Made by a program: the position numbers and the translations under genes
Shown here: positions 33,338 through 59,589 of the stretch, in pieces
Layout of the letters: every line of letters starts with the position of its first letter
How positions within the stretch are numbered: the first letter of the stretch is position 1
Notes under the pieces: model-generated
The model's input: the letters and a program-made list of their open reading frames with translations, nothing else
What the model was told of the DNA's origin: nothing
Database searches by the model: none
Assembly (NCBI GenBank): GCA_046290675.1
Contig: JBKAHA010000019.1
Location: forward strand, 18,742 to 82,741
Reading direction: 5' to 3'
DNA from: Aureliella sp.
Lineage (GTDB): Bacteria > Planctomycetota > Planctomycetia > Pirellulales > Pirellulaceae
Length of the DNA: 64,000 bases

Positions 33338-33501
33338 CCAAGGATTCGCTCCACTTTGCCAACTGGATTGAGAGGTCCAGATCACCAAGGTTTTCAGTGG
33401 TTTACTTAGACTGCTGGGGGCCTCCAACACTAGCTTGTGGATTTCAGCGGCAGAATCCGCAACAATGGTCGGGCTCAAACGCAAGAGAACGCAACCTAAC
33501 T

Positions 33502-34620
33502 ATGAACCAAACCGAACCATCACTAGAAACGCTGATAGCACGCCCTCCTTCCGAAAGAGCCGGGGCAATGGCGGCGAATCGCTTTGCGTTTCAGATAAGT
33601 TGGGTACTCTGTCGGATCCTCGATACTCACCGCGGCTCAAGTGAATACGCCTTCATTTTGGATTACTGGGACGACGTGGTTCAGCTGGACAAAGAAAGCG
33701 GACCGAGCGAGGTAAAGTTCTTTCAAATCAAGTCAGCTACCAAAGCCAACTGGACGGTCAATCGCTTGTTGAAGCGTGAGAAGGGTAAGGATGGCCCACT
33801 ACCATCTATTCTGGGAAAGCTTTTTCGACATTGGGTTAGCTTCCCCAATTTTGTCACCTTCGCGAGATTCGTTAGCAATCGACCATTCAATGCAAAACTG
33901 AATGATGGAAACAAGGCTTTCGAGAAAACGGAAGTGGCGCTTAGCGATTGTGACCAGCACGTCTGTGCAAAGATCAAGTCAGCTCTCAAATCTGAGACTG
34001 GCGAAACGGTATCCGACGATCATCTAAAGTCACTGTTCTTCGAGCGTACGGTACTGACTCATGACGACCATGAGAATCAAGCACGCGGGAGACTTGCTAA
34101 CTTTGTCGAGTTGAATCTTGGTCCGGCAGTGCCATCTACACCCGTCTACAAAACCTTAAGGTCAGAGTTGGAACGACGCAATAACTTCGAGAAGCAGCCC
34201 GCTTCGTTCGAAGAAGTACTCAAGCACAAGGCTTTCACTCGCCAAAATATGGTGGCGATAATCGGCCTGGCAGAAAATGACTCGTCAGCTTCTCACGTGG
34301 TGAATTCCATCCAATCCCTACTCATTGCCGACGGTACTCCATCAGCACGAGTTCTCAGGTTGGTGGCATCCGTCCGAAAATGCTTCGCGATGCGCACGGA
34401 TGTCACAAATCGGGTCCATATGGAAATGGTTGATGTTGTGGGAAATTCTGTGGCAAGTGTAATGTCGGACGAGGACGAAAACCCTTCAGTTTCAAAATGC
34501 GTGTCAGCGACCCGTCAGCAAATCAGCACATCGCTGATGACACGCTTTGAGCAGCTTTACGACCCCTACTATTTAGACGGAATGATTTTGTTGGCGATCT
34601 ATGAAAGAACACAACTTTAG
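33502..34620 (+). CDS. lmuA: Lamassu effector LmuA with DUF4297/Cap4-like nuclease domain
   Basis: Probable start 33502. GAMAANRFAFQ..DYWDDVV..FFQIKS nuclease motif; directly upstream of an SMC-like ATPase. Confidence 0.8.
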   Translation: MNQTEPSLETLIARPPSERAGAMAANRFAFQISWVLCRILDTHRGSSEYAFILDYWDDVVQLDKESGPSEVKFFQIKSATKANWTVNRLLKREKGKDGPLPSILGKLFRHWVSFPNFVTFARFVSNRPFNAKLNDGNKAFEKTEVALSDCDQHVCAKIKSALKSETGETVSDDHLKSLFFERTVLTHDDHENQARGRLANFVELNLGPAVPSTPVYKTLRSELERRNNFEKQPASFEEVLKHKAFTRQNMVAIIGLAENDSSASHVVNSIQSLLIADGTPSARVLRLVASVRKCFAMRTDVTNRVHMEMVDVVGNSVASVMSDEDENPSVSKCVSATRQQISTSLMTRFEQLYDPYYLDGMILLAIYERTQL

Positions 34621-36483: not shown

Positions 36484-37479
36484 ATGGCTGACTTACAAAG
36501 CAAAGCAACCGCATGGCAGACCAATATTGATTTACTCACCAAAGAGGTGGCGGTTGTTGAGACGCCTAAACTGGTCCACGAGGCCGGTCCAGCGGCGCAG
36601 TTTGCCTGGGAAGAGTTCTTCTATGGGCAGATACGTAACGAACACACGCGTAAGGCCTATGGCTTCGCCGTGCGGCGTTTCCTGGAACATTGTGACCGTT
36701 TGGGCCGCGAACTCGCGAAGATCACGCCTCGAGACGTCGCAACGTATTTGGACGGACTCGACTATGCCGCTTCCACAAAGAAGCTGCACCTGTCCGGTCT
36801 CAGGCACTTCTTCGACATCCTGGTCACTCGGCACGCTATTGTTCTCAATCCTGCCTCGTCGGTTCGCAGTGAGCGTTTACACGTAGTCGAAGGAAAAACT
36901 CCGGAGATAACAGTGGTACAGGCCCGCCAATTGGTGCAGAGCATTGATACGTCGACTGTGATCGGTCTACGCGACCGCGCGATCATCGGTATCTTGATTT
37001 ACACCGCAGCGCGAGTTGGGGCAGTCTCGCGTCTTAGGCGTAGAGACTTCTACGACCTGGGCGAACAGCACTGCCTGCGGTTTAGCGAAAAAGGAGCGAA
37101 GTCTCGAGAAATACCGGTGCGTCACGATCTTCGCGGTTTTCTCCTGGAGTATCTACGTACCAGCGGACTCGACTATGCGGACAAGCTTTCGCCGCTCTTC
37201 CGTACAACAATCCGTCGTACCAAACAGCTTACACAGAATCGCATGACTCCCGGTGACATGGGCCGCATGGTGAAGCGTCGCATGAGAGAAGCTGGGCTGC
37301 CTGACCGACTATCGCCCCATTCTTTTCGAGTAACAACGATCACTGACCTTTTAAGCCAGGGGGTTCCGCTGGAAGATGTGCAGAATTTGGCTGGTCACGC
37401 GGATCCGCGAACTACACGTCTCTACGACCGCCGCCAGCGAAAGATTACGCGAAACATCGTCGAGAGAATATCGATTTAG
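36484..37479 (+). CDS. Tyrosine recombinase / plasmid-type resolvase (XerD-like)
   Basis: IRNEHTRKAY, RDRAII..TAARVG, HSFR, LAGH..TTRLY; no arm-binding domain. Confidence 0.9.
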   Translation: MADLQSKATAWQTNIDLLTKEVAVVETPKLVHEAGPAAQFAWEEFFYGQIRNEHTRKAYGFAVRRFLEHCDRLGRELAKITPRDVATYLDGLDYAASTKKLHLSGLRHFFDILVTRHAIVLNPASSVRSERLHVVEGKTPEITVVQARQLVQSIDTSTVIGLRDRAIIGILIYTAARVGAVSRLRRRDFYDLGEQHCLRFSEKGAKSREIPVRHDLRGFLLEYLRTSGLDYADKLSPLFRTTIRRTKQLTQNRMTPGDMGRMVKRRMREAGLPDRLSPHSFRVTTITDLLSQGVPLEDVQNLAGHADPRTTRLYDRRQRKITRNIVERISI

Positions 37480-37564: not shown

Positions 37565-40500
37565 ATGTCGACCGTTCCTAACCTGCCTACCCCTGGCCAA
37601 ATCGCCCGAGTTCGGCAACGGACTTACTTGGTTGAGCAAGTCGTCAAATCACGTCGTGTTACCGACAGCACCCTTGTGCGGCTCTCGTGCGTCGACGACG
37701 ACAACCAGGGGCAGCCGCTTGAGGTTCTGTGGGAGAATGAACTCGACCCGCAGGTAGTTACGGCCGAGGATTGGGAAGCAATTGCATCCAAGGGCTTCGA
37801 TGACCAAAGAACGTTTGCTGCTTATCTGAATTCGCTGAAGTGGAATTGTGTAACTTCGACAGATCCAAAGCTATTCCAATCACCGTTTCGGGCTGGCATC
37901 CGGCTCGATGCTTACCAGCTAGAACCGCTTCGCAAGGCGTTGCTCCTGCCGCGAGTGAATCTATTTATCGCCGACGATGTAGGCCTTGGTAAGACTATTG
38001 AGGCTGGCCTCATTGCGCGAGAACTGTTGCTCCGAAAGAAGGTGCGGGACATTATCGTTTCGTGTCCGCCGTCCATGTTGCTGCAATGGAAGGAAGAGCT
38101 CGAGGCACGCTTTGGGCTTACCTTTGAGATACTCGACAAGGACTACATGACTCGTGTGCGTAGAGAACGTGGCTTTAGCATCAATCCCTGGAGCACGCAT
38201 TCGCGTTTTCTGGTCTCACATAGGCTTTTGATTGACGAGAACTACGCGGCACCCTTGCGGGATCATCTCAGCACTTTTAGACCGGGTTCCCTGTTCATTT
38301 TGGATGAAGCACACCATGCTGCTCCAGCAAGCGGGCAAAAGTATGCCATCGACTCAAAGATTACGCGGGCAGTGCGGGAACTTGCTCCAAGATTCGAGCA
38401 TAGACTCTTCCTATCAGCGACACCTCACAACGGACACTCAAACAGCTTTTCCGCCTTGCTTGAGATCCTTGACCCTCAGCGGTTTTGTCGGGGAGTGTCG
38501 GTAACTCCTAAACACCTGGAAGCTGTTGTAGTTCGACGTCTCAAGGAGGATATCCGTGAAATTCAAGGTGGATTCCCCAAGCGAAACGTCGTGCAGATCA
38601 CGATCGATGGATTACCGAAGACAGCACCTGAACTCGAGCTGTCGCGATTGTTAGACGAGTATCGCGTAACTAGGGAAGAGCGTCTCAAAGGAGAATCCAA
38701 AAGAAAGCAAGCCGCAGCGGGGCTGTTGATTACTGGTTTGCAGCAACGTTTACTTTCTTCAATTGAAGCCTTCGCTCGAACCTTGAAAGTGCATCGGAAA
38801 ACGGTGCAGCGGCAATGGGAAAAGTCGCAAGAGGGCAAGAGAGAAACGGAAGAGAAATCACTTCCAACACTCGATCTCCTCAACAAATCGGTTGACAACG
38901 ATGATGAGCGAGCGAACCTCGAGGAGGAACAACTTAGCGCGATAGAAGATGCACAATTCGAGAGTGCCTCAGCCGCGACCATGGGGCCACTGGAAGACTT
39001 GTCGGCCCAAGAGTTATTCAGCCGAGAACAACAGCTTCTTGCCGAGATGACGGATATCGCTGAGCAGGCACGTGGCCAGGTGGATGCTCGAACGAAGGAA
39101 CTCATTGAGTGGATTCGAAAGAACATGTGCCCCAAGCTCGGCGAAACGGGTGCTGAGTGGAATGATACCCGCGTTCTGATTTTCACGGAGTATGACGATA
39201 CCAAACGCTATCTACGTGAACAGTTGGAAGCAGCAATTGCTAAGAGTGACCGTGCAGAACAACGGATCGAAATCTTCCATGGTCCGACCCCACCGCAGAA
39301 GCGTGAAGAGATCAAGCAAGCCTTTAATGCTGACCCCTCTCAACATCCAGTTCGCATCTTGATTGCAACTGATGCTGCACGTGAGGGCCTAAACCTGCAA
39401 GCTCACTGTTCGAATCTTTTCCATTTCGATGTCCCTTGGAATCCCAGCCGAATGGAGCAACGCAATGGTCGGATTGACCGTAAGCTACAGCCTCGAGACG
39501 AGGTCTTTTGTCACTACTTTGTCTACAAGCAGCGTCCGGAAGATCGTATTCTTCAAGTACTCGTACGTAAGACGCAAACAATCAAGGAGGAGCTTGGAAG
39601 CTTAGCCCAGGTCATTGATGCCAAGCTTGCCAAGTCGATGTCTGGCGGAATTCGCCACAGATCGATCGCTGAGCTCGAGACTCAGTTGGATTCGACGGAC
39701 ATCGACGAGAAACACCGCAACGCAATCGAGCAAGAGTTAGAGGCAACTCGCAAACGTCAGCAGGATTTACGTGAGCAGGTCGACAGGCTGAGATCCTTAC
39801 TGGAGCGTTCGAAAGAGACTATCGGGCTTTCCGAGGATCACTTTCGATCTGCTATTTCATGTTCACTCGAGTTGCTTGGCCAAGATCGCCTGGAAGAGTC
39901 CGGTCATATTGGCAAGAACGTTGATACTTTTGCTTTTCCTGCCCTCGATGAAAGGTCTGGAGCCGACCCAACCTGGGCTGAGACGATGGACACTCTGCGT
40001 GCCCCGCGTAAGCGCGATCAGAAGCTTTGGGAGTGGCGCAAGAGTTCGCCCATTCGTGAAGTTGTCTTCAATGATCCTGGGGTGGTAAGCGACGACGTTG
40101 TTCACTTGCACTTAGAACAGCGTGTTGTGCAGCGTTTACTCGGACGCTTCTCCGCTCAGGGATTCGTGCATCACGATCTGTCCCGATCATGTTTTGCGCA
40201 ATCGAAAGATGCCATTCCACGAGTCATCTTGTTAGGACGTTTGTGTCTCTACGGTATTGGGGCAGCTCGATTACACGAAGAGCTGATCCCCGTCACAGCT
40301 CGTTGGACGGACCCCAAGATTCGCAAGGACAAGCTCTCACCCTATGCGAAAGACACGGAAGCAAAAACGCTCTCGCTGTTAGAACAAGCCTTACTCGACT
40401 CCCAGGGCGTCTACCTAGATGGCAGAGTCACCGAGCAGTTGAGAGAGGCCGCTGCGCAAGACATCAGCGAACTGCTTCCTTACCTAGAATCTCGCGGTCA

Positions 40501-40831
40501 GGAATATGCCGAGGATGCTGAGTCCAAACTAATCTCTCGGGGGCAAGCTGAGTCCAAGGCTATGGCCGAGATTCTCGGCACACAGCGAAAGCATATCGCC
40601 GAAACAGTTAAGAAGTTTGATAAGACAGATCGGAATCAGCTCAAGTTTGAGTTTGCTCAAGAAGAGGAACTCGCGCAGCTTGACGCAAACAAGCGATATT
40701 GGGCCAAGCGGCTCGAGGAACTAAGAGAGGAGTTGAAATCGGAACCCAAACGTATCGAGGAGCTTTATTCAGTGCAGGCTCGGCGGATTGAACCTGTGGG
40801 ACTTGTCTACCTCTGGCCAGTAACTGGATAA
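37565..40831 (+). CDS. drmD: DISARM SNF2-like helicase DrmD
   Basis: IADDVGLGKT, DEAHH, ATDAAREGLNLQ, EQRNGRIDR; first gene of the drmD-MI-A-B-C order. Confidence 0.88.
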   Translation: MSTVPNLPTPGQIARVRQRTYLVEQVVKSRRVTDSTLVRLSCVDDDNQGQPLEVLWENELDPQVVTAEDWEAIASKGFDDQRTFAAYLNSLKWNCVTSTDPKLFQSPFRAGIRLDAYQLEPLRKALLLPRVNLFIADDVGLGKTIEAGLIARELLLRKKVRDIIVSCPPSMLLQWKEELEARFGLTFEILDKDYMTRVRRERGFSINPWSTHSRFLVSHRLLIDENYAAPLRDHLSTFRPGSLFILDEAHHAAPASGQKYAIDSKITRAVRELAPRFEHRLFLSATPHNGHSNSFSALLEILDPQRFCRGVSVTPKHLEAVVVRRLKEDIREIQGGFPKRNVVQITIDGLPKTAPELELSRLLDEYRVTREERLKGESKRKQAAAGLLITGLQQRLLSSIEAFARTLKVHRKTVQRQWEKSQEGKRETEEKSLPTLDLLNKSVDNDDERANLEEEQLSAIEDAQFESASAATMGPLEDLSAQELFSREQQLLAEMTDIAEQARGQVDARTKELIEWIRKNMCPKLGETGAEWNDTRVLIFTEYDDTKRYLREQLEAAIAKSDRAEQRIEIFHGPTPPQKREEIKQAFNADPSQHPVRILIATDAAREGLNLQAHCSNLFHFDVPWNPSRMEQRNGRIDRKLQPRDEVFCHYFVYKQRPEDRILQVLVRKTQTIKEELGSLAQVIDAKLAKSMSGGIRHRSIAELETQLDSTDIDEKHRNAIEQELEATRKRQQDLREQVDRLRSLLERSKETIGLSEDHFRSAISCSLELLGQDRLEESGHIGKNVDTFAFPALDERSGADPTWAETMDTLRAPRKRDQKLWEWRKSSPIREVVFNDPGVVSDDVVHLHLEQRVVQRLLGRFSAQGFVHHDLSRSCFAQSKDAIPRVILLGRLCLYGIGAARLHEELIPVTARWTDPKIRKDKLSPYAKDTEAKTLSLLEQALLDSQGVYLDGRVTEQLREAAAQDISELLPYLESRGQEYAEDAESKLISRGQAESKAMAEILGTQRKHIAETVKKFDKTDRNQLKFEFAQEEELAQLDANKRYWAKRLEELREELKSEPKRIEELYSVQARRIEPVGLVYLWPVTG

Positions 40832-40837
40832 CGAACC

Positions 40838-43800
40838 ATGGCAAAGTCACCTGAGGAATATGCACACCTGGAATGGCTGGGTTATGTCCAGCCAACAGGT
40901 CTTGTTGTGTCGATCCCCGCACTTCTTGAGGCTCAGTGCTACGTCGACAAGAACATCATGGCTGAGCACACCCAATTCCTGGCTTCCTTACGTCGTGACG
41001 AGGATGACCAGGTCGTCGCTGAAGTGCGAGATCTTGCTGAGTTCACGCAGAGCGTGCTTGGTTGGAATGATTCGGACTTGGAGGTGGTCCCTCAAGCTCC
41101 TACCGGTGACATGGCTCAGCTTGAGGTCGTTTTGCCTCAGTACAACGAAACCCTACGTCCAACGCACGTAGTTCCAGCTTACAAGCCAAATGAAGGCGAA
41201 CCCAAATGGATGATGCTGGTTCAGGAATTGGCGACTGGGACCGATTTCGACGTGGCAACTGAGGCGGATAGTAGTCGACATTGGAGCGCGGCACCTCATG
41301 CCAAGTTCGAGCGATTGCTCCGTGAAAGTGAAGTGCCGATCGGTCTGCTATACAACGGATCTCAGTTTCGTTTGGTCTACGCACCTCGTGGTGAAACCAG
41401 TGGCTATGCAACATTCAATGTAGACGAAATGGGCCAGGTAGCAGGACGCCCCATGTTTGCCGCGTTCTACATGCTGCTCTGCGTCGATCGGTTGTTCACA
41501 CTGGCGCCTGAGCAATGTCTGCCAGCAATCTTGGAGAATAGCCGCAAGTATCAGAGCAACGTTTCAACGAAATTGGCTGAGCAGGTTACTTCTGCGTTGT
41601 TTGAGTTGCTTCGTGGATTTCAAGCAGCTGATGACCATCGCAGCGGCGAATTGCTGCGTGACATCCTCAAGAACAACCCTCAGCATGTTTACAACGGCTT
41701 GCTTACCGTATTGATGCGTCTCGTCTTCGTGCTGTATGCCGAGGACCGCGGGGTCCTTTCGACTGATTCAGTTTATGCCAATCACTATTCCGTGTCTGGC
41801 TTGTTTCAGCGCCTTCGTAGCGACGCTGGCCGCTTCCCAGACACTATGGATCAGCGGTTCGGTGCGTGGTCTCAACTCCTGACCTTGTTTCGGTTGGTAT
41901 TCCAAGGTGCCAAGCATAACGAGTTTCAGATTCCTCCTCGGAAAGGATATCTTTTCGATCCAGATCGCTATCCGTTTCTTGAGGGGCGCTACGATGACGG
42001 AGACGTCGACGTCTCGTCACCAGAGGAGCAGTGTTCGGTGATTCAGATTCCTCAGATTAGCGATGGCGTTATCTATCGTGTGCTCGAGGATCTACTGATT
42101 CTAGATGGCGAGCGTCTCAGCTACCGAACACTTGATGTTGAACAGATTGGCAGTGTTTATGAAGCGGTTATGGGGTTTCAGCTAGAAGTTGCCACTGGGA
42201 AGTCAATCGCCATCAAGCCGGTCAAATCGCACGGCGCACCAGCGACAGTCAATCTCGAGAGTTTACTCGAGGCTAAGCCTGCAAACCGCTCTAAACTTCT
42301 CAAAGAATGGACTGATCAGAAGCTAGGGGCGAGTGACGCCAAGTCGTTGAAGGACGCAAGTAGTATTGAAGAGATTGTCGAAGCCCTTGGCAAGAAGATC
42401 GCGCGCCATGTAACTCCGAGCATTGTTCCATCTGGAAGCATGGTGTTCCAACCATCTGAAGAGCGCAGGCGAAGTGGCTCGCATTACACACCACGTTCTT
42501 TAACCGAACCAATAGTTAGGACTACGCTCGAACCAATTCTCAGGCAATTGTGCGATCCAGATTCAGACTTACCGAGCGTTTACAAACCCTCGAGTCAGGA
42601 TAAGGACCGCTACACAAAGGGTGAAATTGCTGCTCGTGTTCGCCAGTCTGAGAAACATATCGAGTACGCCACGGCTGCGAGAGAGAAAGGTGTACCGCAC
42701 CCTAACCAAATTCTCGATCTAAAAATCTGCGACCCTGCCATGGGCAGTGGTGCGTTCTTGGTTGAGACTTGTCGACAACTTGGAGATGAATTGATTCTGG
42801 CGTGGGCGGCTCACGACATGCAACCATCGGATATTCCGCCCGATGAGGATGAGGTGCTGTACGCGCGTCGCCTTGTGGCCCAGCGTTGCCTGTACGGAGT
42901 CGACAAAAACGTAATGGCCGTAGACCTCGCCAAGCTTTCGCTCTGGCTTGTAACGCTGGCCCAGGACCACGCATTTACGTTCCTAGATCACGCTCTTCGT
43001 CATGGGGATTCGCTGGTTGGTCTTACGCGTCGCCAGATAATTGGCTTTCATTGGGAACCCAAGAAGCAAAAGAAATTTGGCGAAGACTACATCCAAAAAC
43101 GGCTCGACCGAGCCACCGAAGCCCGCGCGAAAATCTTAAATGCCCGCGAGGATGTCCCTTACAAAGATCAGGAACAGCGATTGGCGGTGGCGGATGAGGC
43201 GTTGGATTTGATCCGCATCCTTGGCGATGCGTGCGTCAGTTGCTTCTTTGCCGAGTCGAAAAAGAAAGCCCGCGAAGAAGAAGCGGATCGCGTGTATGGT
43301 CTGGCCAGTTCTTATCTGGAAAGTCAGAAGCAGCCGCAAGTCGATCATGCGAGTCGAACCGGTCTGCAGGAAGCCGCCGCTCTCCTTCGAGACAGTTCGC
43401 AGGAGCATCCCGTTCCCGCGTTTCACTGGGAGATTGAGTTTCCCGAAGTTTTTTCGCGTGAGAATGGCGGGTTCGATGCGTTTGTGGGGAATCCGCCGTT
43501 CTTGGGAGGGAAGAGAATAAGCGGTGCCTTTGGAAGTAGCTATCGCGATTGGCTGCCAGCTATTCACGCGGAAACGAACAGCAATTCAGATTTAGTTGCA
43601 CACTTTTTTAGGCGCGCTTTTAATCTACTCAGAAAACAAGGCACATTAGGGCTAATCGGAACAAACACGATCTCCCAAGGTGACACGAGGGCGACAGGGC
43701 TTCGCTGGATTTGTAACCACGGCGGACAAATTTATTGGGCGAAGCGACGCGGGGCCTGGCCAGGAGTTGCAGCAGTAGTCGTTAGCTTCGTGCACATTTT

Positions 43801-45019
43801 CAAAGGTCAGCTCGACGGACTCCGAAGTCTCGATGGGAAGCAAGTTGAGCGTATCACGGCATTTCTTTATCACGCGGGCGGCAATGATGATCCGTTCGTT
43901 TTGCAATCAAACGAAGGACTCAGCTACCAAGGATGCATCGTTCTAGGCATGGGTTTTACGTTCGACTCAGAACCTAACGATGTGTCAGGAACGCTCGAAG
44001 AAATGCACGAATTGATTGCAGCAAATCCAAGAAACCAAGACGTAATTTTTCCATATATTGGCGGCGAAGAACTTCTAAGGAGTCCCATTCAATCACCTCG
44101 CAGATATGTAATCAATTTTGGAGGGCGGACTCTTGAAGAATGTGAAGCTGAGTTTCCTGATCTCCTGGAGATCGTTCGCGAACGCGTTAAACCAGCAAGA
44201 GATGAACTCAAGCGCGACGTATATCGCAATAAGTGGTGGATGTTTGCGGAAAGGCAAACCGCACTTTGTGATGGACTTGCGACGTTAGACAGAGCGTTGA
44301 TGCACTCGTTTACGTCATCGCACTTGGCATTCGCGTTTATTCCCGCCGATACGGTATTTGCTGGCCCACACTGCGTCTTTCTCCTAGATGGCTATGGCTA
44401 CTTTTGCACGATGCAAAGTCGAATACATGAGCGATGGGCTAGATTCACAAGCTCGACTTTGAAGGACGACCTTAGTTACAAAATCACGGATTGCTTTGAG
44501 ACATTTCCCTTTCCCTTGCAAGTCGAGACGTTGGATGATGCAGGGCAAGCGTATTACGACCTGCGTGCGCAAGTAATGATCTCAAACGATGAAGGTCTGA
44601 CGAAGACCTACAACCGTTTCCATTCTCCGGACGAGCGTGATGAGGGCATCTTGGAGCTTCGTCGTCTTCACGGTTTGATGGATGGAGCGGTGCTGCGGGC
44701 CTACGGCTGGGACGATCTGGCAGAATCTGCCGCAGCCGACGATTTTTGCGAGTTCCTGCTCGACTACGAAGAGGAAGAAGACGACGACGCGCCCGCCTCG
44801 ACCAAAAAGAAATCCAAAAAGAAGAAGCCCTGGCGTTATCGCTGGCCCGACGACTTCCGCGACGAAGTCCTCGCCCGCCTCCTCGAACTCAACGAACAAC
44901 GCCACAAAGAAGAACAAATCGCTGGCAAGCTTGCGGACGGTGAGTCAAAGAAGAAGACGCCAGCCCGCAACAAGACATCCCCCCCGTCAAACCCAGGCCA
45001 GACTTCATTCCTCGAATAG
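40838..45019 (+). CDS. drmMI: DISARM N6-adenine methyltransferase DrmMI
   Basis: GSHYTP, DPAMGSGAF (SAM motif), GNPPF (catalytic), followed by a TRD-like region. Confidence 0.88.
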   Translation: MAKSPEEYAHLEWLGYVQPTGLVVSIPALLEAQCYVDKNIMAEHTQFLASLRRDEDDQVVAEVRDLAEFTQSVLGWNDSDLEVVPQAPTGDMAQLEVVLPQYNETLRPTHVVPAYKPNEGEPKWMMLVQELATGTDFDVATEADSSRHWSAAPHAKFERLLRESEVPIGLLYNGSQFRLVYAPRGETSGYATFNVDEMGQVAGRPMFAAFYMLLCVDRLFTLAPEQCLPAILENSRKYQSNVSTKLAEQVTSALFELLRGFQAADDHRSGELLRDILKNNPQHVYNGLLTVLMRLVFVLYAEDRGVLSTDSVYANHYSVSGLFQRLRSDAGRFPDTMDQRFGAWSQLLTLFRLVFQGAKHNEFQIPPRKGYLFDPDRYPFLEGRYDDGDVDVSSPEEQCSVIQIPQISDGVIYRVLEDLLILDGERLSYRTLDVEQIGSVYEAVMGFQLEVATGKSIAIKPVKSHGAPATVNLESLLEAKPANRSKLLKEWTDQKLGASDAKSLKDASSIEEIVEALGKKIARHVTPSIVPSGSMVFQPSEERRRSGSHYTPRSLTEPIVRTTLEPILRQLCDPDSDLPSVYKPSSQDKDRYTKGEIAARVRQSEKHIEYATAAREKGVPHPNQILDLKICDPAMGSGAFLVETCRQLGDELILAWAAHDMQPSDIPPDEDEVLYARRLVAQRCLYGVDKNVMAVDLAKLSLWLVTLAQDHAFTFLDHALRHGDSLVGLTRRQIIGFHWEPKKQKKFGEDYIQKRLDRATEARAKILNAREDVPYKDQEQRLAVADEALDLIRILGDACVSCFFAESKKKAREEEADRVYGLASSYLESQKQPQVDHASRTGLQEAAALLRDSSQEHPVPAFHWEIEFPEVFSRENGGFDAFVGNPPFLGGKRISGAFGSSYRDWLPAIHAETNSNSDLVAHFFRRAFNLLRKQGTLGLIGTNTISQGDTRATGLRWICNHGGQIYWAKRRGAWPGVAAVVVSFVHIFKGQLDGLRSLDGKQVERITAFLYHAGGNDDPFVLQSNEGLSYQGCIVLGMGFTFDSEPNDVSGTLEEMHELIAANPRNQDVIFPYIGGEELLRSPIQSPRRYVINFGGRTLEECEAEFPDLLEIVRERVKPARDELKRDVYRNKWWMFAERQTALCDGLATLDRALMHSFTSSHLAFAFIPADTVFAGPHCVFLLDGYGYFCTMQSRIHERWARFTSSTLKDDLSYKITDCFETFPFPLQVETLDDAGQAYYDLRAQVMISNDEGLTKTYNRFHSPDERDEGILELRRLHGLMDGAVLRAYGWDDLAESAAADDFCEFLLDYEEEEDDDAPASTKKKSKKKKPWRYRWPDDFRDEVLARLLELNEQRHKEEQIAGKLADGESKKKTPARNKTSPPSNPGQTSFLE

Positions 45020-45093
45020 TGACCGAAGGTGTCACGCAACCTGCTACCCTAGAAGCTTCGCCCAAATTCTCCATATCAAAATGAGGTGCAACG

Positions 45094-45612
45094 ATGAACT
45101 CGTTTGGCAAACTTGCTCTTGTCATGTCGACAGTTGCGCCCGTACTCGGAGCTTTTGGAATCAACGCCTTCTCGAATGGAGCGACCAGTGCCGGTTGGTG
45201 GTATGTCGGCATCGCACTAGGAATGATCGTGATTACGGCTCTCATCCTGTTCGAATGCCACCGACGCATAGAGACAGAAACGCTCAAGATTGAAACGACT
45301 AAGTCAGTAGACAAAGAGTCTCTGTCTTTTCTGCTCGTGTATCTTCTTCCGCTTCTTGCCAAAGACGTCAATCAGTTTACTGGAGATACCTGGACCGCCT
45401 TTTACGTATTCGGCGTCATCGCCTTGGTTGTTGCGCATGGAAATCTAGTCACCTTCAACCCAGTTTTTGCTCTCTTTCGCCTGCACTTCTACGAAGTAAA
45501 GACCGTGGGTGGGATGACCTGTACTTTTGTGTCAAAGCAAATCATAAAGAAACAGTCCGGCGAGTATCGCGCCATCGAAGTCTACCCGTTCTTCTACATG
45601 GAGGCTAAGTAG
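45094..45612 (+). CDS. kwaA: Kiwa membrane component KwaA-like
   Basis: Four TM helices; ESLSFLLVYLLP and NLVTFNPVFALFRLHFYEV resemble KwaA motifs; 2 nt upstream of a KwaB-like gene. Confidence 0.75.
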   Translation: MNSFGKLALVMSTVAPVLGAFGINAFSNGATSAGWWYVGIALGMIVITALILFECHRRIETETLKIETTKSVDKESLSFLLVYLLPLLAKDVNQFTGDTWTAFYVFGVIALVVAHGNLVTFNPVFALFRLHFYEVKTVGGMTCTFVSKQIIKKQSGEYRAIEVYPFFYMEAK

Positions 45613-45614
45613 CC

Positions 45615-46523
45615 ATGTCAAACGAATTGACATTTTTTGCCGTCACGCGAGTCGGTAGTGGACCATCAGAGTTACAGCGCATTCATGTCGAGCGTTCGGT
45701 CCAAGAACAGCTTTCAGAGTTGTTTGACGAACAGTCGGAAGAATTCACTGGTGTTGACGTGGAACCAATCCAGTTTAGCCCGACATACCGTATTGATCGT
45801 TCGGACAACGAAGTATTTGCAGTTTCTGAATTCGAGATCCCAGAGTTCTTGAGCGAAGCCTTGGAAGCCCATGAAAGCATCGAAGACTTACAGAATCCGT
45901 TTACGCCACAAGCCCCACGAGTGAAAGCAATTGTCGGTGTCGACGCTGAATCAGGGGCTTTCTTTTTTCAGTATTTTGAGCGAAGACGAATCCTTGATTC
46001 TCGCCGTTTATTTCTCTTTAGGAACGATCGTTTCAGTGCAGTTGAAGAGCCCGCAATCACAGTAGATGACAAGCTCGTAGCAACGATCATTGATGGCGAG
46101 TTGCGCTTTAAATCGTTCTATCACGTTCGACAGTTCTTAGACCTCTCCATTCTCTTTGAGGATGCAACAGATGAGTCGATTCACAAGTTTTTGGAACATC
46201 CAAAACTGCATGTAGAGGATATTGAAGCCCTTATTCCTCGACTTTCCACTCGAATGAGAAAACGCTTCGCGGTTGTACTCGCTACGGGCATTCTCGATGA
46301 CCAGAATATTACGCCCCAGCTAATTCAGACTCGAGCAAAGAAATACACGGGACTTGAGAACTTACGACTCAAAGGACCTGCAAGCTCGAGAAAGATCGTC
46401 CTACCATCCGAACTCGCGAAGCTCGAGAAACTTCTTCGGTTTGTTTGTGAAGAACTATATGTAGGCGATCTAACCGGTAGCGAACGAATTACTAACTCCT
46501 CAAGAGTCATAACAACTGCTTGA
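45615..46523 (+). CDS. kwaB: Kiwa KwaB-like (DUF4868) protein
   Basis: FFFQYF, ITVDDKLVA, FKSFYHVRQFLDL..F..AT..I..F pattern of DUF4868; paired with a 4-TM gene. Confidence 0.78.
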   Translation: MSNELTFFAVTRVGSGPSELQRIHVERSVQEQLSELFDEQSEEFTGVDVEPIQFSPTYRIDRSDNEVFAVSEFEIPEFLSEALEAHESIEDLQNPFTPQAPRVKAIVGVDAESGAFFFQYFERRRILDSRRLFLFRNDRFSAVEEPAITVDDKLVATIIDGELRFKSFYHVRQFLDLSILFEDATDESIHKFLEHPKLHVEDIEALIPRLSTRMRKRFAVVLATGILDDQNITPQLIQTRAKKYTGLENLRLKGPASSRKIVLPSELAKLEKLLRFVCEELYVGDLTGSERITNSSRVITTA

Positions 46524-46582
46524 ATCAATTAGACAGCGATGGGGAATTCTGGCACTCTTCCTAGAAAAATGGCGAGGAATTC

Positions 46583-49500
46583 ATGAAACCTGTTGATGTC
46601 AGGCACCATCTCCAGCAAGCAATACAGCTCGACCTCGTGGGGCCAACTGAGACGTTGGGGGATCTTCGGGAGACCCTCAATCAAATGCCGTCACGGTGGT
46701 ATCTCACCGGCTTTTTGGTGCCGACTGAAGCAGATGAGGCCCAACGTGTCGATCCAACGAGCAACGATGAGCTTGACCAGGCGGCTGAACCAGCTGGCCT
46801 CGATGACGATAGTACTCCAGAACCTGTAGCGGCCAGAAGATCCTATCTTCCCAGCAGCATGGGACTCAGCGTCTTGGTCCCTAAGAATGCCACAGAGTTA
46901 AATATATCAGTTGATTACGGAGAGTACCTCCTTCAAGAACAAGATGAAGGATACTCCGGCCCAGACCTATGGAAGCGTGTGCCGCACAGACAAGAGTTCA
47001 AACTTGATTTTGGTAGTTCAGCTCCAAATCGAGGGAGGCTTCCGGTTCCCAACAGCAGAGGGCTAGAGATTGACTGGTCCATTCGCGAAGTACCCGACTC
47101 GGGTATCGAAGGTGGTTTACCCTCGGGAACTCGAAGTCTTTCGGTATTCATCGTCAATCATCGAACTCCTGCTGGCGATAAACACGCCGACGAAGCATCA
47201 GTGTTTCAGGTGCAGCTTGAGCTAAAATGCAACCAAGGATTCGTCGCGAGGCCGAACCTTCGGAGCCTCGAGAGCGACGACTGGGACGAATGCGTTGCAG
47301 ACCTCCAGTATCAAGACTCGTTCGAGTTTTCTGTCGGGCATGGCGTATCCACGGAAGCTGATACAGAGGGCAACGTCTGTAATGTAGTGCGAACTTGCTG
47401 GCTTCCTAGTGCAGAAGTCGAGAAAGTCGCCCCCGCGCCAATTCCCGATGTTGAATTGCGTATGGAGGAGTTGGCCGGTCTCAAAGACGGGAAAGCCGCA
47501 CAAGAAAAGCTCGGCAACTTTGTTGAATGCTACAAGTCTTGGATCAAGAAACAGATAGACAATGTCCCTTCGTCACCTGCTAAACGAAGAGAAACTGGAG
47601 AAGTTCTCTTGCATAACGCCTCGAGGGCGGCAAAACGAATACAGGAAGGAATTGATTTACTTTCGACGCCTGACTGCTTAGACGCTTTCCGATTAGCCAA
47701 CCGAGCGATGGCAGATCAAGGGCGACGAAGACTCGCACTGCAACTCAATAAGCCAGCCGCTGAAATCGTTCCTGCTTGGCGCCCGTTCCAGTTAGCATTT
47801 CTTCTGATGAATTTAAAGGGAATTGCTGAGCCTGAAGGCGATGATCGCCAGGTAGTGGACCTCCTATTCTTTCCAACAGGTGGTGGTAAGACCGAAGCCT
47901 ACCTTGGTTTGGCAGCTTTTACTCTGGTGCTGCGACGACTTCGAAACCCCGGTATCGCATCGGCAGGTTTGAGCGTGTTGATGCGTTATACGTTGCGGCT
48001 ACTGACACTCGACCAGCTCGGTCGTGCCGCTGCCTTGATATGTGCTCTCGAGCTTCTTCGTCAAAGCGACGTTGATAAGCTCGGCGAGTGGCCATTTGAA
48101 ATCGGCTTATGGGTTGGCCGAGCCGCAACGCCAAATCGCATGGGACGGAAAGGCGAATCGGATGGCGAATCTGCTCGGCGAAAAACAATCGCGTTCCAGA
48201 ATGACAGCAAGAATAAACCCTCGCCTATTCCGCTAGAAGAATGTCCTTGGTGTGGAGAGAAGTTTCGGGCTACATCCTTTAAGTTAACACCCAATACAGA
48301 CAACCCAACTGATCTCCGTGTCACCTGTGCTAACCGAGACTGCGACTTCTCGAGAGGTAATGACTTACCCATTCTTGCTGTTGATGAGCCAATCTATCGA
48401 CGGCTACCTTGCTTCTTGATTGCCACTGTCGATAAATTTGCGGCCATGCCTTGGACCGGTGAAGTTGGCGGCTTCTTCGGTCGGGTCGACCGCTATGACG
48501 CTGATGGTTTTTATGGGCCTTGCGAGAAGAACGTTGGTCGTCCCCTACCTGAGCCACGACTGAATCCACCGGACTTGGTGATTCAAGACGAATTGCACCT
48601 GATATCGGGACCACTGGGCACAATGGTCGGCCTGTATGAGACCGCCTTGGACGAATTGTCGACTGTTATGCGAGATAACAAAGAGATACGTCCAAAGATC
48701 ATTGCTTCCACGGCTACGGTTCGCCGTGCAGAAAGTCAGATTCGGGCACTATTCAACCGACGTCTGGTTGACGTATTCCCTCCCCCAGGCCCTGATCGTC
48801 GAGATTCATTCTTCGCTGAAACTCATAGCACCGAACGAAGCAACGCTCGGCAGTATCTGGGTATCGCGGCCCAAGGGCGCTCGCCAAAAGTCATTATGCT
48901 GCGAGTCTACTTGGCTCTCTTGGCTGCAGCCCAACGCGTTTATGTTGAAAACGGTGGTAAGAAAAACAAAAGTAATCCAGCTGACCCGTATATGACGCTG
49001 CTCGGCTATTTCAACAGTTTACGAGAACTTGGTGGTGCAAGAAGGCTGATTGAAGACGAAGTTCGCACGCAGCTTATTTCTCGGGGTGCTCGAAAAAGAG
49101 TTGGTGAAGACAAAGGTGTCTTTCGCGACCGAAAGATAACGTATGAACCTGTTGAACTGACCAGCCGAGTCTCAACGGACAAAGTGTCTGAGGCTAAGCG
49201 ACTCCTCGAGCAAGCGTTCTTTGAAAAGGACCACGTCGATGTGGCTATCGCCACCAATATGATTTCTGTCGGTCTCGACATCACGCGACTTGGCCTGATG
49301 GTTTGCTTCGGCCAACCCAAGACCAGTGCCGAATACATTCAGGCAACGAGCCGTGTTGGACGAGATGACAAGCGGCCTGGGTTAGTGGTGACAATCCTAA
49401 ATATTCATCGGCCAAGAGACCGGTCACACTACGAACGTTTCGCTGCCTTCCACGAGACCTTCTATCGCTCTGTTGAGGCCACAAGCGTCACGCCATTCTC

Positions 49501-49975
49501 ACCTCGCGCCTTGGACCGTGGACTTGCCGGCACACTTGTCGCTTTGGTTCGCCAAGGGCATCTACCTATGACGCAACCACGCGGGGCAACTGAGATTCTC
49601 AACGAAATGCCGCGATTAGACACATTCGTCGAGCAGATTTCGGATCGTGCCCTGGAGACACACTATGACAGTTCATCTGCTGAAGCGGAACACCTTAAGA
49701 ACGTTGTGCGAGAGCGTGCTATCGATTTGCTCGACAACTGGAATACGATTGCAAAGGAATTGCATGACAATGGTGGCGCACTACAGTATCAGGCTGAAAT
49801 CGGGGGTGCCCAAAGACTACTCTACGAGTTCCTCAATCCAGAGCTAAAGGAACTGCCCGCTCGGCATAAAAAGTTCCGTGCCAATCGTTCGATGCGAGAC
49901 GTCGAGCCAAGCGTCAATCTCTGGCTTAAGACAATTGACGGTGTTGAGCTTGACCCTGAGGAGGAGGACGCGTGA
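46583..49975 (+). CDS. drmA: DISARM helicase DrmA
   Basis: FFPTGGGKTEAY, IQDELHLI, ATNMISVGLDI, YIQATSRVGR. Confidence 0.9.
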   Translation: MKPVDVRHHLQQAIQLDLVGPTETLGDLRETLNQMPSRWYLTGFLVPTEADEAQRVDPTSNDELDQAAEPAGLDDDSTPEPVAARRSYLPSSMGLSVLVPKNATELNISVDYGEYLLQEQDEGYSGPDLWKRVPHRQEFKLDFGSSAPNRGRLPVPNSRGLEIDWSIREVPDSGIEGGLPSGTRSLSVFIVNHRTPAGDKHADEASVFQVQLELKCNQGFVARPNLRSLESDDWDECVADLQYQDSFEFSVGHGVSTEADTEGNVCNVVRTCWLPSAEVEKVAPAPIPDVELRMEELAGLKDGKAAQEKLGNFVECYKSWIKKQIDNVPSSPAKRRETGEVLLHNASRAAKRIQEGIDLLSTPDCLDAFRLANRAMADQGRRRLALQLNKPAAEIVPAWRPFQLAFLLMNLKGIAEPEGDDRQVVDLLFFPTGGGKTEAYLGLAAFTLVLRRLRNPGIASAGLSVLMRYTLRLLTLDQLGRAAALICALELLRQSDVDKLGEWPFEIGLWVGRAATPNRMGRKGESDGESARRKTIAFQNDSKNKPSPIPLEECPWCGEKFRATSFKLTPNTDNPTDLRVTCANRDCDFSRGNDLPILAVDEPIYRRLPCFLIATVDKFAAMPWTGEVGGFFGRVDRYDADGFYGPCEKNVGRPLPEPRLNPPDLVIQDELHLISGPLGTMVGLYETALDELSTVMRDNKEIRPKIIASTATVRRAESQIRALFNRRLVDVFPPPGPDRRDSFFAETHSTERSNARQYLGIAAQGRSPKVIMLRVYLALLAAAQRVYVENGGKKNKSNPADPYMTLLGYFNSLRELGGARRLIEDEVRTQLISRGARKRVGEDKGVFRDRKITYEPVELTSRVSTDKVSEAKRLLEQAFFEKDHVDVAIATNMISVGLDITRLGLMVCFGQPKTSAEYIQATSRVGRDDKRPGLVVTILNIHRPRDRSHYERFAAFHETFYRSVEATSVTPFSPRALDRGLAGTLVALVRQGHLPMTQPRGATEILNEMPRLDTFVEQISDRALETHYDSSSAEAEHLKNVVRERAIDLLDNWNTIAKELHDNGGALQYQAEIGGAQRLLYEFLNPELKELPARHKKFRANRSMRDVEPSVNLWLKTIDGVELDPEEEDA

Positions 49976-51795
49976 ACAAGCGACGTGGAAAAAAAGCTCA
50001 CGGTCAAATTCGACAGAGTCAATTGATCACCTCATTTGGACCTGGTGCGATGATGGACTTGCCAAATCATTCGGTGCTGATTGGAGGTCTCGATTCCTGG
50101 TCATCAGGAGGAGATGAAGTTCTCGAGCCGCGGCTCATCGATAAACTCAAGTCTCTGTTTGACCCGCCACTTAGCAGCCTTAAGCTGGTTTCCCCTCCGC
50201 CGGACCCCGATGATTCTACGGCTCCACAGACGGGTATAACTGCATGGCAGTTCCCGGAGTGGTTCATCATTCAGGACGTCGATACTGACGAGAGCAGCGG
50301 CACCAGACGTGCCAGAATGCTAGTTCACCGTTCGCGATTGAACAAAGGCAAGTTCATTGATGACAATCGCAAGAAGCGCAATGTAGTGCCCGTTCGCTTT
50401 GTCAGAGCGTGCAAGAGTGGTCACATTGGTGACATCGACTGGTATGCTTTTCTTCACGGTCCAGAGTCCAACTGTCGCCGGCAGCTCTGGATCGAGGAAC
50501 GCGGAACCAGCGGCGACCTCGCCGAGGTATTTGTCCGCTGTGAATGTGGAAATGCTGAGCGAAGTATGGCTCAGGCAGCAGATTCTCGCGAACGCTCACT
50601 CGGGCACTGCGACGGCAGCCGACCATGGCTTGGTCCCTATTCAAAAGAAAAGTGCGGTGACATCAATCGACTCTTGATTCGAACTGCCAGTAACGCTTAC
50701 TTCCCACAATTAATGAGCGTAATCTCACTTCCAGACCGCAACGAAGATCTCCGGGATGCGGTGGAATCTGTCTGGGACTTCGTCGAAATTGCCGAGAGCG
50801 AAGCGGACATCGCCAAGGAGCGAAAGAAATCAAAAGTCCACAAGGCGCTAGATGGCTTTACCGACAGCGAAGTCTTTGAGGAAATCAAGGTTCGCCGAGG
50901 CCAAAAGTTTGACCAACAAAAATCGGTAAAACAAGCCGAAATGGAAACGCTGATTGCGAGCAAGGACACCATGGGGGAAGACAAGCCCGATGGTAACTTT
51001 TTTGCGCGAACATTACCTGCCGACCAATGGAGTTCCTATCCTTGGATGTCCGACGTCGAGAGAGTCGTGTTGGTGCACCGACTCCGGGAAGTCGTCGCCC
51101 AAGTTGGCTTCACTCGATTCGAGGCCATCTCTCCAGATATTGACGGAGAGCTCGAGATTGGTGTCAGGAGAGCAACTCTTGCCAGAGAGATCACTTGGCT
51201 ACCAGCCATTGAGAATCGCGGCGAGGGGGTCTTTATTCAGCTCAAGAAGGAAGCTGTAGAGAACTGGCTCGAGAAACCTGATGTTCAGGCTCGAGGGCAG
51301 CAACTGCTCAGTGGGTATGAGACTTGGGCTTCGGAGCACAGTGAAAGCCGCAGGGCATTCCCAGGCCTTCCCTATTTAATGCTTCATTCACTATCACACC
51401 TGCTTATTACCTCGGTGTCACTCGAATGTGGTTACCCAGCAAGCTCGATTCGAGAACGCATCTACTCGATTCCGAGTGTTGGCTATGGAGTACTTCTCTT
51501 CACCGGAAGTAGCGATGCTGAAGGAACGCTTGGCGGTCTAATTCAGGTTGGTCGCAAGATCCATGAGCACCTGCGAAATGCTCTCGAGCTAGGCTTACTT
51601 TGCTCGAATGACCCTGTGTGTGCCCAACACCAACCGACAAACGCACACGAGAGACGCTTCCTTCACGGAGCTGCGTGTCATGGTTGTGTACTGATTTCCG
51701 AGACTTCTTGCGAACAGCACAATGAGTATCTGGACCGTGCGCTAGTTGTGAGCACCGTAGACAACCTCGGCACGGAATTCTTCAAGCTCGGCTGA
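49972..51795 (+). CDS. drmB: DISARM DUF1998 protein DrmB
   Basis: IRQSQLITSFGPGA, HSLSHLLI, CSNDPVC..ACHGC..SC four-Cys cluster; GTGA overlap with drmA. Confidence 0.9.
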   Translation: MNKRRGKKAHGQIRQSQLITSFGPGAMMDLPNHSVLIGGLDSWSSGGDEVLEPRLIDKLKSLFDPPLSSLKLVSPPPDPDDSTAPQTGITAWQFPEWFIIQDVDTDESSGTRRARMLVHRSRLNKGKFIDDNRKKRNVVPVRFVRACKSGHIGDIDWYAFLHGPESNCRRQLWIEERGTSGDLAEVFVRCECGNAERSMAQAADSRERSLGHCDGSRPWLGPYSKEKCGDINRLLIRTASNAYFPQLMSVISLPDRNEDLRDAVESVWDFVEIAESEADIAKERKKSKVHKALDGFTDSEVFEEIKVRRGQKFDQQKSVKQAEMETLIASKDTMGEDKPDGNFFARTLPADQWSSYPWMSDVERVVLVHRLREVVAQVGFTRFEAISPDIDGELEIGVRRATLAREITWLPAIENRGEGVFIQLKKEAVENWLEKPDVQARGQQLLSGYETWASEHSESRRAFPGLPYLMLHSLSHLLITSVSLECGYPASSIRERIYSIPSVGYGVLLFTGSSDAEGTLGGLIQVGRKIHEHLRNALELGLLCSNDPVCAQHQPTNAHERRFLHGAACHGCVLISETSCEQHNEYLDRALVVSTVDNLGTEFFKLG

Positions 51796-51797
51796 CC

Positions 51798-52589
51798 ATG
51801 ACCAACCCTCTTGCGCAACTTAGTGATCACGATCTCCAGACTCTGATCGACGCCCTGGCTAGCGAACGAATTGTAGGGCCATATTCAGAGTTGCTTGTCA
51901 GTCGATTCTTGTCCTCTGCTGTAGCTTCGAACGTATCGAAGGCCTTGAAGGAATATGCCTCGCTGGGGTTCACTACTAAGCAGATTTCTGCGACGCTTGA
52001 ACTCCTTCGAGAAGACCGACGTGGTAGAGAGGAGAAACGAACTCCGATCGATCTAGTTGTATCTGGACCAGAGGCCGCCGGAGCAGCCAATCGCGACACT
52101 GCTGTCGTAGTGAATGAGCTGTTCAAGCACGCACAAGAGTCAGTATTAGTCGTTGGCTATGCGGTCTATCAGGGCCAAAAGGTGTTTCAATCGCTGGCAG
52201 ATCGAATGGAACAGATGCCAAATCTCACCGTGCGGTTCTTCTTAGATGTTGCTCGGAGCAATTCAGACGATTCGAAGCAAGACATCGTCGTTTCCCGGTT
52301 CGTGCGGCGATTTAAGGACAAACAATGGCCTAAAGGGCGTCGGCTGCCCGAAGTTTATTACGACCCACGCTCTTCAGCCAACGATACGACAGTCCGATCG
52401 TCGCTACACGCGAAGTGTGTTGTGGTTGACGGTATTCAGGTATTCGTCTCCTCTGCAAACTTCACCGAAGCCGGACAGGAACGCAATATTGAAATTGGAC
52501 TGAAGATCCAATCGGAATGGCTCGGTGGCAGAATCATTCGTCATTTCGAACTTCTTCGCGATCAAGAGTTGGTCTCAAGAGCAATCTGA
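51798..52589 (+). CDS. drmC: DISARM phospholipase D-like nuclease DrmC
   Basis: LHAKCVVVD (HxKxxxxD) and SSANFT..RNIEIG. Confidence 0.88.
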   Translation: MTNPLAQLSDHDLQTLIDALASERIVGPYSELLVSRFLSSAVASNVSKALKEYASLGFTTKQISATLELLREDRRGREEKRTPIDLVVSGPEAAGAANRDTAVVVNELFKHAQESVLVVGYAVYQGQKVFQSLADRMEQMPNLTVRFFLDVARSNSDDSKQDIVVSRFVRRFKDKQWPKGRRLPEVYYDPRSSANDTTVRSSLHAKCVVVDGIQVFVSSANFTEAGQERNIEIGLKIQSEWLGGRIIRHFELLRDQELVSRAI

Positions 52590-59588: not shown

Positions 59589-59589
59589 G

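Follow-up and report, generated by a model that had tools for sequence, protein, structure and literature searches.

A Kiwa gene pair at a variable junction of a class 1 DISARM operon, headed by a promoter-like element shared with recA

Two anti-phage gene sets at one locus

Seven open reading frames (ORFs), all on the forward strand by our ORF calls, fill positions 37565-52589 of the stretch of Pirellulaceae DNA analysed here (64 kb long and called the window below; positions without a locus or contig prefix refer to it). Five of them constitute a class 1 DISARM operon, and the remaining two, placed between its drmMI and drmA genes, are the kwaA and kwaB genes of a second anti-phage system, Kiwa. 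By PADLOC profiles the DISARM set drmD, drmMI, drmA, drmB and drmC is complete, co-oriented and in canonical order. The drmD gene (37565-40831) encodes a SNF2-type helicase of 1088 amino acids (aa) that matches PADLOC DrmD PDLC02621 over its full length (E=0), with Pfam SNF2-rel_dom and Helicase_C domains and the motifs GLGKT and DEAH; it is followed by drmMI (40838-45019), whose 1393-aa product is an N6-adenine methyltransferase of type IIG/MmeI-like build (PADLOC DrmMI PDLC02643, E=0; Pfam Eco57I, MmeI_Mtase and MmeI_TRD; motifs DPAMGSG and NPPF). Beyond the Kiwa pair lie drmA (46583-49975; 1130 aa), the core helicase of the system (PADLOC DrmA PDLC02575, 9e-304; motifs GGGKT and DELH), which is 57-81% identical to 80 relatives; drmB (49972-51795; 607 aa), which encodes the DUF1998/MZB zinc-binding partner of DrmA (PADLOC DrmB, 6.5e-78; Pfam MZB; CHGC) and whose start overlaps the drmA stop; and drmC (51798-52589; 263 aa), a phospholipase D (PLD)-family nuclease gene (PADLOC DrmC, 4e-80; Pfam PLDc_2; HxK(x)4D motif HAKCVVVD). 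Motif inspection found every catalytic motif intact: Walker A and DExH in the helicases, motif I and NPPF in the methyltransferase, and HxK in the PLD nuclease. An earlier note on this DNA, made from the sequence alone, had likewise described five DISARM genes with intact motifs and in canonical order.

In gene set, order and catalytic motifs the operon agrees with the class 1 DISARM systems described before (Ofir et al. 2018; Serratia sp. SCBI, bioRxiv 10.1101/2021.12.28.474362; DrmAB structure, PMC9142583). It differs from them in being interrupted by 1.56 kb between drmMI and drmA, which breaks the contiguity of the core genes, and in having no drmMII, a gene that the Serratia system possesses (bioRxiv 10.1101/2021.12.28.474362). 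In the DISARM clade examined below, where 31 of 55 relatives are likewise interrupted, contiguity hardly counts as a defining feature.

The first gene of the inserted pair, kwaA (45094-45612, forward strand), encodes the Kiwa membrane component, a protein of 172 aa. It matches PADLOC KwaA PDLC00221 at 2.5e-33 over residues 1-170 as well as 13 further PADLOC KwaA models, and Pfam PF28043 KwaA is found in its homologues. In a Kyte-Doolittle scan three strong hydrophobic segments appear (residues 5-25, 37-55 and 100-121) and a weaker one (~76-90); this would fit the four transmembrane helices of the earlier description, one of them being a weaker candidate. The second gene, kwaB (45615-46523, forward strand), encodes the DNA-binding effector of Kiwa (302 aa) and matches PADLOC KwaB PDLC00222 at 6.8e-58 over residues 7-299. 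The check by profile searches thus identified both proteins over essentially their full length.

In a Pfam search neither protein had a match; DUF4868 (PF16162), to which the second gene had been likened, missed KwaB at E<=1e-3. The family is present in P0008, a KwaB relative of 37% identity. We were not able to match KwaB to the sequences of the Protein Data Bank (PDB) by direct phmmer or profile searches, as it is too distant from the solved E. coli proteins, and KwaA matched the solved KwaA 9mrg only weakly by phmmer (E=0.088). An AlphaFold model of KwaB, built from eight sequences, is poor (pLDDT 61). When it was compared by Foldseek, the four best PDB matches were all KwaB structures (9mtn, 9mrx and 9nyu; E 1e-4 to 9e-3, probability 1.0, full-length alignment), with TM scores of only 0.29-0.32 at this pLDDT. 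The identification of KwaB therefore combines the PADLOC models, the PF16162 domain of P0008 and these fold matches.

The pair resembles the Kiwa system of E. coli (Zhang, Todeschini et al., PMC11785009; PDB 9mtn, 9mrx, 9mrg) in its two-gene operon with kwaA first, in its small polytopic KwaA, and in a KwaB of about 300 aa that carries KwaB profiles and finds solved KwaB as its top fold matches. It differs in its position inside DISARM, in belonging to a rare clade of Planctomycetota, in a KwaA that is shorter than the solved ones (172 aa against 195-203), and in sequences very distant from the solved E. coli proteins; at the DNA level the window had no match in E. coli genomes.

As the earlier note had stated, the two genes are co-oriented with the drm genes around them and closely packed, with gaps, read directly, of 74 bp (drmMI-kwaA), 2 bp (kwaA-kwaB) and 59 bp (kwaB-drmA). 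Each gene is preceded by a purine-rich ribosome-binding site, the GGAGG site of kwaB lying inside the end of kwaA, and a consensus scan found no terminator-like hairpin in either outer gap. The GC content of kwaB is 0.459, about 6 points below the 0.506-0.525 of the drm genes.

A variable cargo slot between drmMI and drmA

To tabulate the genes between drmMI and drmA in related operons, we took the 80 closest relatives of DrmA, one genome per species, mostly from Planctomycetota, Acidobacteriota and Cyanobacteria. The junction could be scored, with the drmMI end and the drmA start both visible, in 55 of these 80 loci. Here drmMI and drmA are contiguous (gap <=296 bp) in 24 loci and separated by 0.8-6.3 kb of extra genes in 31. 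Gaps above 400 bp occur at this junction in 34 of 57 loci, a count that includes two metagenomic Kiwa loci, and are found in 7 of 34 loci at drmD-drmMI, 0 of 79 at drmA-drmB and 0 of 70 at drmB-drmC; one of the four junctions thus takes almost all insertions. The drmD-drmMI junction is a second, rarer insertion point, with inserts of 0.5-1.7 kb in its seven loci (L020, L023, L032, L070, L071, L079 and L083).

The cargo of the drmMI-drmA junction comprises 104 ORFs that fall into 87 clusters, mostly of defence families. Among the matches are Drt1a reverse transcriptases, GmrSD/type IV restriction enzymes, PtuA/AriA-like ATPases, NsnB and PDC-M68B, as well as a Cap15 receptor domain, ABC-3C components, dCTP deaminase and lipases. 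The two sisters of the window in the DrmA tree, L075 and L008, carry other cargo (Drt1a in the case of L008), and cargo differs even within the pairs L006/L013 and L014/L016, whose DrmA proteins are near-identical. Cargo therefore turns over faster than DrmA diverges. These results bear out one of two readings offered in the earlier note, in which the junction is a variable slot for defence genes, and the tabulation it had proposed shows that slot filled with diverse defence cargo.

The edges of the insert in the window can be placed by comparison with the sister loci. Beyond the drmMI stop codon homology is lost, and it returns with TTCTGGCACT, some 37 bp ahead of the drmA start. This conserved drmA leader (46546-46582, forward strand), which includes TTCTGGCACT and the drmA ribosome-binding site, aligns with L075 and L008 despite their different cargo and marks the right edge of the slot. 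We found no meaningful direct or inverted repeats flanking the insert. A candidate sigma-54 promoter within the leader (TGGCAC) was rejected by eye, its -12 GC being out of register.

Kiwa is uncommon cargo. None of the 55 scorable relatives holds it, as judged by tblastn, by HMMs built from the Kiwa clade of the window and by a PADLOC tally. The KwaB clade is tiny, with eight clusters in a collection of 5.8 billion proteins, and KwaB relatives were found in 2 of 400 other genomes of the phylum and 1 of 40 relatives. Patterns back-translated from KwaB retrieved no relatives from genome and metagenome contigs, so that the relatives came only through the protein collection. Two of them are nested between drmMI and drmA together with other cargo, in metagenomic DISARM loci: P0002 (L004/L005), 59% identical to the KwaB of the window, and P0006 (L006), 50% identical. 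Two others stand alone, namely P0007 of Rosistilla carotiformis (49%) and P0005 (L007; 51%), which adjoins an island of type I restriction-modification (R-M) and GmrSD genes. P0004 (L091; 61%) lies on a contig of 1.9 kb, and the gene after its kwaB is 57-67% identical to a cargo gene directly upstream of drmA in L022 and L032; this is probably another instance of Kiwa in the slot. The proteins in question form an uncharacterised family of ~384-433 aa (L091:1570-1902, 3' of kwaB; L022:6206-7360; L032:8663-9964), and the contexts of this family suggest that slots exchange cargo genes in varying combinations.

The KwaB proteins nested in DISARM do not form one lineage. The KwaB of L006 is 76% identical to the stand-alone protein of Rosistilla (support 100/100), and a tree that forces the nested KwaBs into a single clade is rejected (AU p=4.9e-9). 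Three changes of the Kiwa label are needed on the DrmA tree, and the distances conflict: the KwaB of the window is closer to that of L004, whereas its DrmA is closer to that of L006. Since the nested KwaBs are polyphyletic and three label changes are needed, Kiwa entered or left DISARM slots at least twice, which fits cassette traffic and not one inherited composite.

One further gene recurs at the junction. In seven related DISARM loci the drmMI stop codon is overlapped by a gene of ~650 aa that the window lacks (L004:2732-4672, L006:5061-7016, L009:4689-6629, L012:4103-6034, L014:5186-7141, L015:4749-6704 and L072:1444-3408). It is weakly LmuB/PDC-M68B-like and has no Pfam match. In the three loci of this kind in which drmMI was measured (L005, L006 and L009), its product is longer, at ~1530-1690 aa against 1393. 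The ~650-aa gene may be a clade-specific DISARM accessory and not free cargo.

A promoter-like element shared with recA

The left edge of the Kiwa insert is marked by a promoter-like element, GTGACCGAAGGTGTCAC (45019-45035, forward strand), whose first base is also the last of the drmMI stop codon and which has no other match in the window. Alignment of kwaA upstream regions, from nested and stand-alone loci, shows an invariant GACC-N5-TGTC core within the consensus (G/T)TGACC-AAACG-TGTC(A/C)C, often palindromic as GTGAC-N7-GTCAC. The element precedes kwaA in all seven Kiwa loci of the clade (the window, L003, L004, L006, L007, L091 and L093), and it also heads cargo other than Kiwa in L016, where it overlaps the drmMI stop, L045 and L073. 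A candidate -10 hexamer, TACCCT (45045-45050, forward strand), follows 9 nt past the 17-mer, and -10-like hexamers stand in the same register in other Kiwa leaders (GATAAT in L007, TATCAT in L093 and TAACAT in L004) and in the copies upstream of recA described below. From this arrangement we predict a transcript start near 45057 and a 5' untranslated region of about 37 nt for kwaA.

With a weight matrix based solely on the seven copies in Kiwa leaders we searched for the element elsewhere. The host is a Pirellulaceae genome of 7.7 Mb, whose RecA is 89% identical to that of metagenome-assembled genomes labelled 'Pirellulaceae bacterium' and 83-84% identical to Aureliella RecA. This genome holds 11 matches of at least 18 bits; its first 3 Mb hold 5, against 0-1 in Markov-3 simulations of 3 Mb. 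The matches precede two operons of an XRE-HTH gene and an M78-peptidase gene, a small ORF with a WYL domain, and recA, at a distance of ~390 nt (copies at C3:92019(-), C1:434548(-), C17:48270(-), C17:48387(-) and C2:428780(+)).

The recA association extends through the family. All 17 congeners with enough sequence, the host genome included, carry a forward-strand copy of 15-22 bits upstream of recA, and so do 26 of 27 other genera of the family at 14 bits or more, the 27th reaching 13.8. In 12 usable genomes from other families of the order no upstream region exceeds 7.3 bits, and a reverse-strand control at recA gives at most 8.9 bits. In ~43 Pirellulaceae genomes (loci L098-L155) the element thus lies 100-550 nt upstream of recA, always in the orientation of the gene. 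When 44 recA-upstream copies are aligned, a second conserved block appears 9 nt after the 17-mer, -10-like and of the form cGATACT/cGAAAAT.

We considered whether the element could be a LexA box and rejected the idea: it is absent upstream of lexA in the host genome and in 27 of 29 other genera, whose lexA upstream regions show a different, TGTACA/TGTATA-like pattern. Such repeats, for example GTGTACACGTGTATATG, recur upstream of lexA in the 29 genera (loci L156-L185) and may be the LexA box of Pirellulaceae; one paper noted that in planctomycetes LexA makes no use of the E. coli box. The nearest likeness that we know for the element is with the PafBC-dependent promoters of mycobacteria (tGTCgg-N10-tA-N3-T; PMC8635444). 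Both have a GTC block at a fixed short distance before the -10, no canonical -35 at 17 bp, a position upstream of recA and independence of a LexA box. The element described here, TGTC-N11-(G/T)A-N3-T, differs in that its spacing is 1 nt shorter and that a further conserved block, GACC, stands 5 nt upstream of TGTC. It has the look of a LexA-independent recA promoter, of PafBC-like build and not described so far. In the literature we found no description of this promoter element or of a recA regulatory motif in Planctomycetota. The new feature at the locus, as judged from sequence comparison, is this conserved promoter-like element in the 74-bp gap (GTGACC-N5-TGTCAC with its -10-like hexamer), which kwaAB shares with recA. 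If the promoter holds, it would offer a first way into DNA-damage regulation independent of LexA in Planctomycetota.

Two groups of genes deserve mention as possible regulators. The XRE-HTH and M78 (ImmA/IrrE/CapP-like) operons lie at C17:47090-48400, with two copies of the element ahead, and at C1:433164-434560, with one; one of these operons is kept together with its motif in a congener (L096). Probably these operons control themselves by way of the motif, or its regulator acts on them as well. Pairs of an XRE repressor and an M78 peptidase (CapH/CapP) are DNA-damage switches for defence operons, some DISARM operons included (bioRxiv 10.1101/2022.04.27.489752), and the pairs in the host genome, which also recall DdrO/IrrE, are like them. 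In the CapH/CapP systems the two genes adjoin and diverge from the regulated operon; no such pair stands beside kwaAB in the window. As a conserved regulator of recA the XRE-M78 pairs are unlikely candidates: a homologue of the C17 peptidase was found in 1 of 30 relatives, which marks them as accessory. The other candidate is an HTH-WYL-WCX protein, the kind of regulator that binds and activates PafBC-type promoters after DNA damage; the genome has one (C4:395499-396521). Orthologues of 70-83% identity are present in 16 of 18 congeners, and families negative for the motif have distant paralogues only. This correlation, drawn among related genomes, makes the protein no more than a lead as candidate regulator.

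Taken together with the gene order, the element suggests that kwaAB is probably read from its own recA-type, LexA-independent promoter. Because no terminator was seen before drmA, transcripts from this promoter probably run on into drmABC, and read-through from drmD-drmMI probably covers kwaAB too. The suggestion of the earlier note that Kiwa is co-transcribed with DISARM is thus supported as regards the missing terminator and needs amending in that the cassette has its own conserved promoter-like element. If the promoter holds, embedded cargo would not simply be co-regulated with its host operon, and it may impose a stress-responsive promoter on the DISARM genes downstream. It is possible, though we hold it only tentatively and as rather less than an even chance, that the Kiwa cassette is part of an undescribed LexA-independent regulon of the recA type in Pirellulaceae, with PafBC-like promoters, and also places drmABC under a stress-responsive promoter; embedding would then amount to expression rewiring as well as gene storage.

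Explanations for the nesting, and the setting of the locus

We propose, with a probability of about 0.8, that the locus holds two complete and separate anti-phage systems, Kiwa being nested in the variable slot of DISARM as a swappable cassette with its own promoter. The drmMI-drmA junction is a hot spot at which defence cassettes are swapped in and out. In the window the slot is occupied by one compact cassette of 1.5 kb, made up of the promoter-like element, kwaA and kwaB and reaching exactly from the drmMI stop codon to about 25 bp past the kwaB stop, before the conserved drmA leader. Both systems are presumably active. By homology with E. coli Kiwa, membrane-bound KwaA would sense phage attachment or DNA entry and release KwaB, which would bind the incoming DNA and stall its replication without the cell being killed; DrmMI would methylate the host DNA, and DrmAB and DrmC would attack unmodified incoming DNA.

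The two systems might instead form a dedicated composite, kept by selection as a co-transcribed unit whose parts cooperate on incoming phage DNA at the site of entry, for example with KwaB holding the DNA for DrmAB or with a DNA-mimic inhibitor split between both systems. This would account for the recurrence of one rare Kiwa clade at the drmMI-drmA slot in three, probably four, related DISARM loci, in a phylum where a relative of KwaB is present in just 2 of 400 other genomes; co-orientation, short gaps and the missing terminator would suit it, and partitioning of an inhibitor between Kiwa and RecBCD has been published (PMC11785009). We nevertheless consider it unlikely. The two closest relatives of the window are among the 55 scorable loci that have no Kiwa, the nested KwaBs are polyphyletic, one of them with a close stand-alone relative, and the distances of KwaB (towards L004) and DrmA (towards L006) disagree. 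The promoter element of the cassette, moreover, is retained where Kiwa stands alone, and the cargo that accompanies Kiwa is not the same in the three loci.

As one of its two readings, the earlier note had offered a particular composite, with Kiwa as a membrane-anchored abortive layer guarding DISARM, by analogy with PrrC. In type I R-M loci (EcoprrI), PrrC is likewise a second defence gene embedded in an operon of the restriction-modification type. PrrC is a latent suicide nuclease: the R-M enzyme restrains it, and inhibition of this enzyme activates it. For Kiwa the analogy fails, since this system protects individual cells without killing them and is not abortive (PMC11785009); together with the polyphyly and the 0 of 55 relatives, this speaks against the guarding layer. 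Unlike for PrrC, nothing suggests that Kiwa senses the state of DISARM, and PrrC is almost always embedded (bioRxiv 10.1101/2024.01.29.577857), whereas the Kiwa clade of the window also stands alone.

The motif at the drmMI stop might also be taken for a site-specific recombination site in an integron-like slot served by a tyrosine recombinase, and not for a promoter. Its position exactly at the boundary between drmMI and cargo, its overlap with the drmMI stop codon in L016, and a tyrosine recombinase gene directly upstream of drmD (36484-37479) would agree with this. A single copy flanks the cassette, however, with none at the right edge; the motif is missing at most cassette boundaries of the 31 cargo-bearing loci; and the recombinase lacks conservation next to other DISARM loci, where we found only a 59% homologue 3' of drmC in L015 and a distant match in L055. 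The gene-oriented copies upstream of recA in ~43 genomes, each with a -10-like hexamer in fixed register, fit a promoter, and we regard a recombination site as very improbable. Still less probable, in our view, is that kwaAB merely interrupts DISARM as an inert passenger, its DNA being silent or in decay. The GC content of kwaB, below that of its neighbours, points in that direction. Both frames, however, are full length against the profiles and have ribosome-binding sites, the promoter element and its -10 register are conserved, and the flanking DISARM genes are intact.

Some points weigh against our proposal of separate systems and a travelling cassette. The 0 of 55 count sets no bound on the frequency of Kiwa over all DISARM loci, coming as it does from the 80 closest relatives of DrmA with one genome per species, and the terminator scan covers simple intrinsic terminators only. 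Among the five members of the Kiwa clade with enough context, three sit in the DISARM slot; such an enrichment might be due to a functional preference, beyond mere traffic of cassettes between slots.

Nesting of this general kind has been documented. Defence genes occur embedded in BREX, Hma and type I R-M systems and, frequently, in DISARM; 96.7% of them run in the same direction as their host system (Payne, Hughes, Fineran, Jackson 2024, bioRxiv 10.1101/2024.01.29.577857). The Kiwa pair of the window shares the features of this 'guilt-by-embedding': core genes of a methylation-based system enclose a known defence system that has the same strand and stands at a junction whose content varies among related loci. 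Kiwa, KwaA and KwaB are not named as an embedded system in the text or supplements of that work, where the supplement text may be incomplete, so that this is weak evidence of absence. The possibility that such nesting is already common and documented therefore applies to embedding in DISARM at large and not, in that source, to Kiwa. The locus is a clean new example of the published rule that defence systems nest in methylation-based systems, and the overall picture is unchanged by it. What our analysis adds is a census for each junction, the repeated entry or exit of one and the same rare cassette type, at least twice, and a promoter that would travel with the cassette.

Programmed inversion has been described for some DISARM methylases (PMC9881135). 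An inversion of drmMI by the adjacent tyrosine recombinase was considered for the window and rejected, as no long inverted repeats lie within positions 32-58 kb.

Directly upstream of DISARM lies a complete Lamassu pair, formed by an LmuA with a Cap4-type nuclease (33397-34620; 7e-74) and LmuB (34653-36365; 4e-197); the tyrosine recombinase gene stands between this pair and drmD. Farther away are genes for ParA and ParB (58773-60501), an ATPase like type IV coupling proteins (24744-27848), a second integrase (16564-17775) and a Fic protein (18388-19557). Because ParA/ParB, the coupling-protein-like ATPase, the integrase and the Fic protein lie nearby, we take the locus for a defence island carried by a mobile element, plasmid-like or integrative, within a contig of 90 kb.

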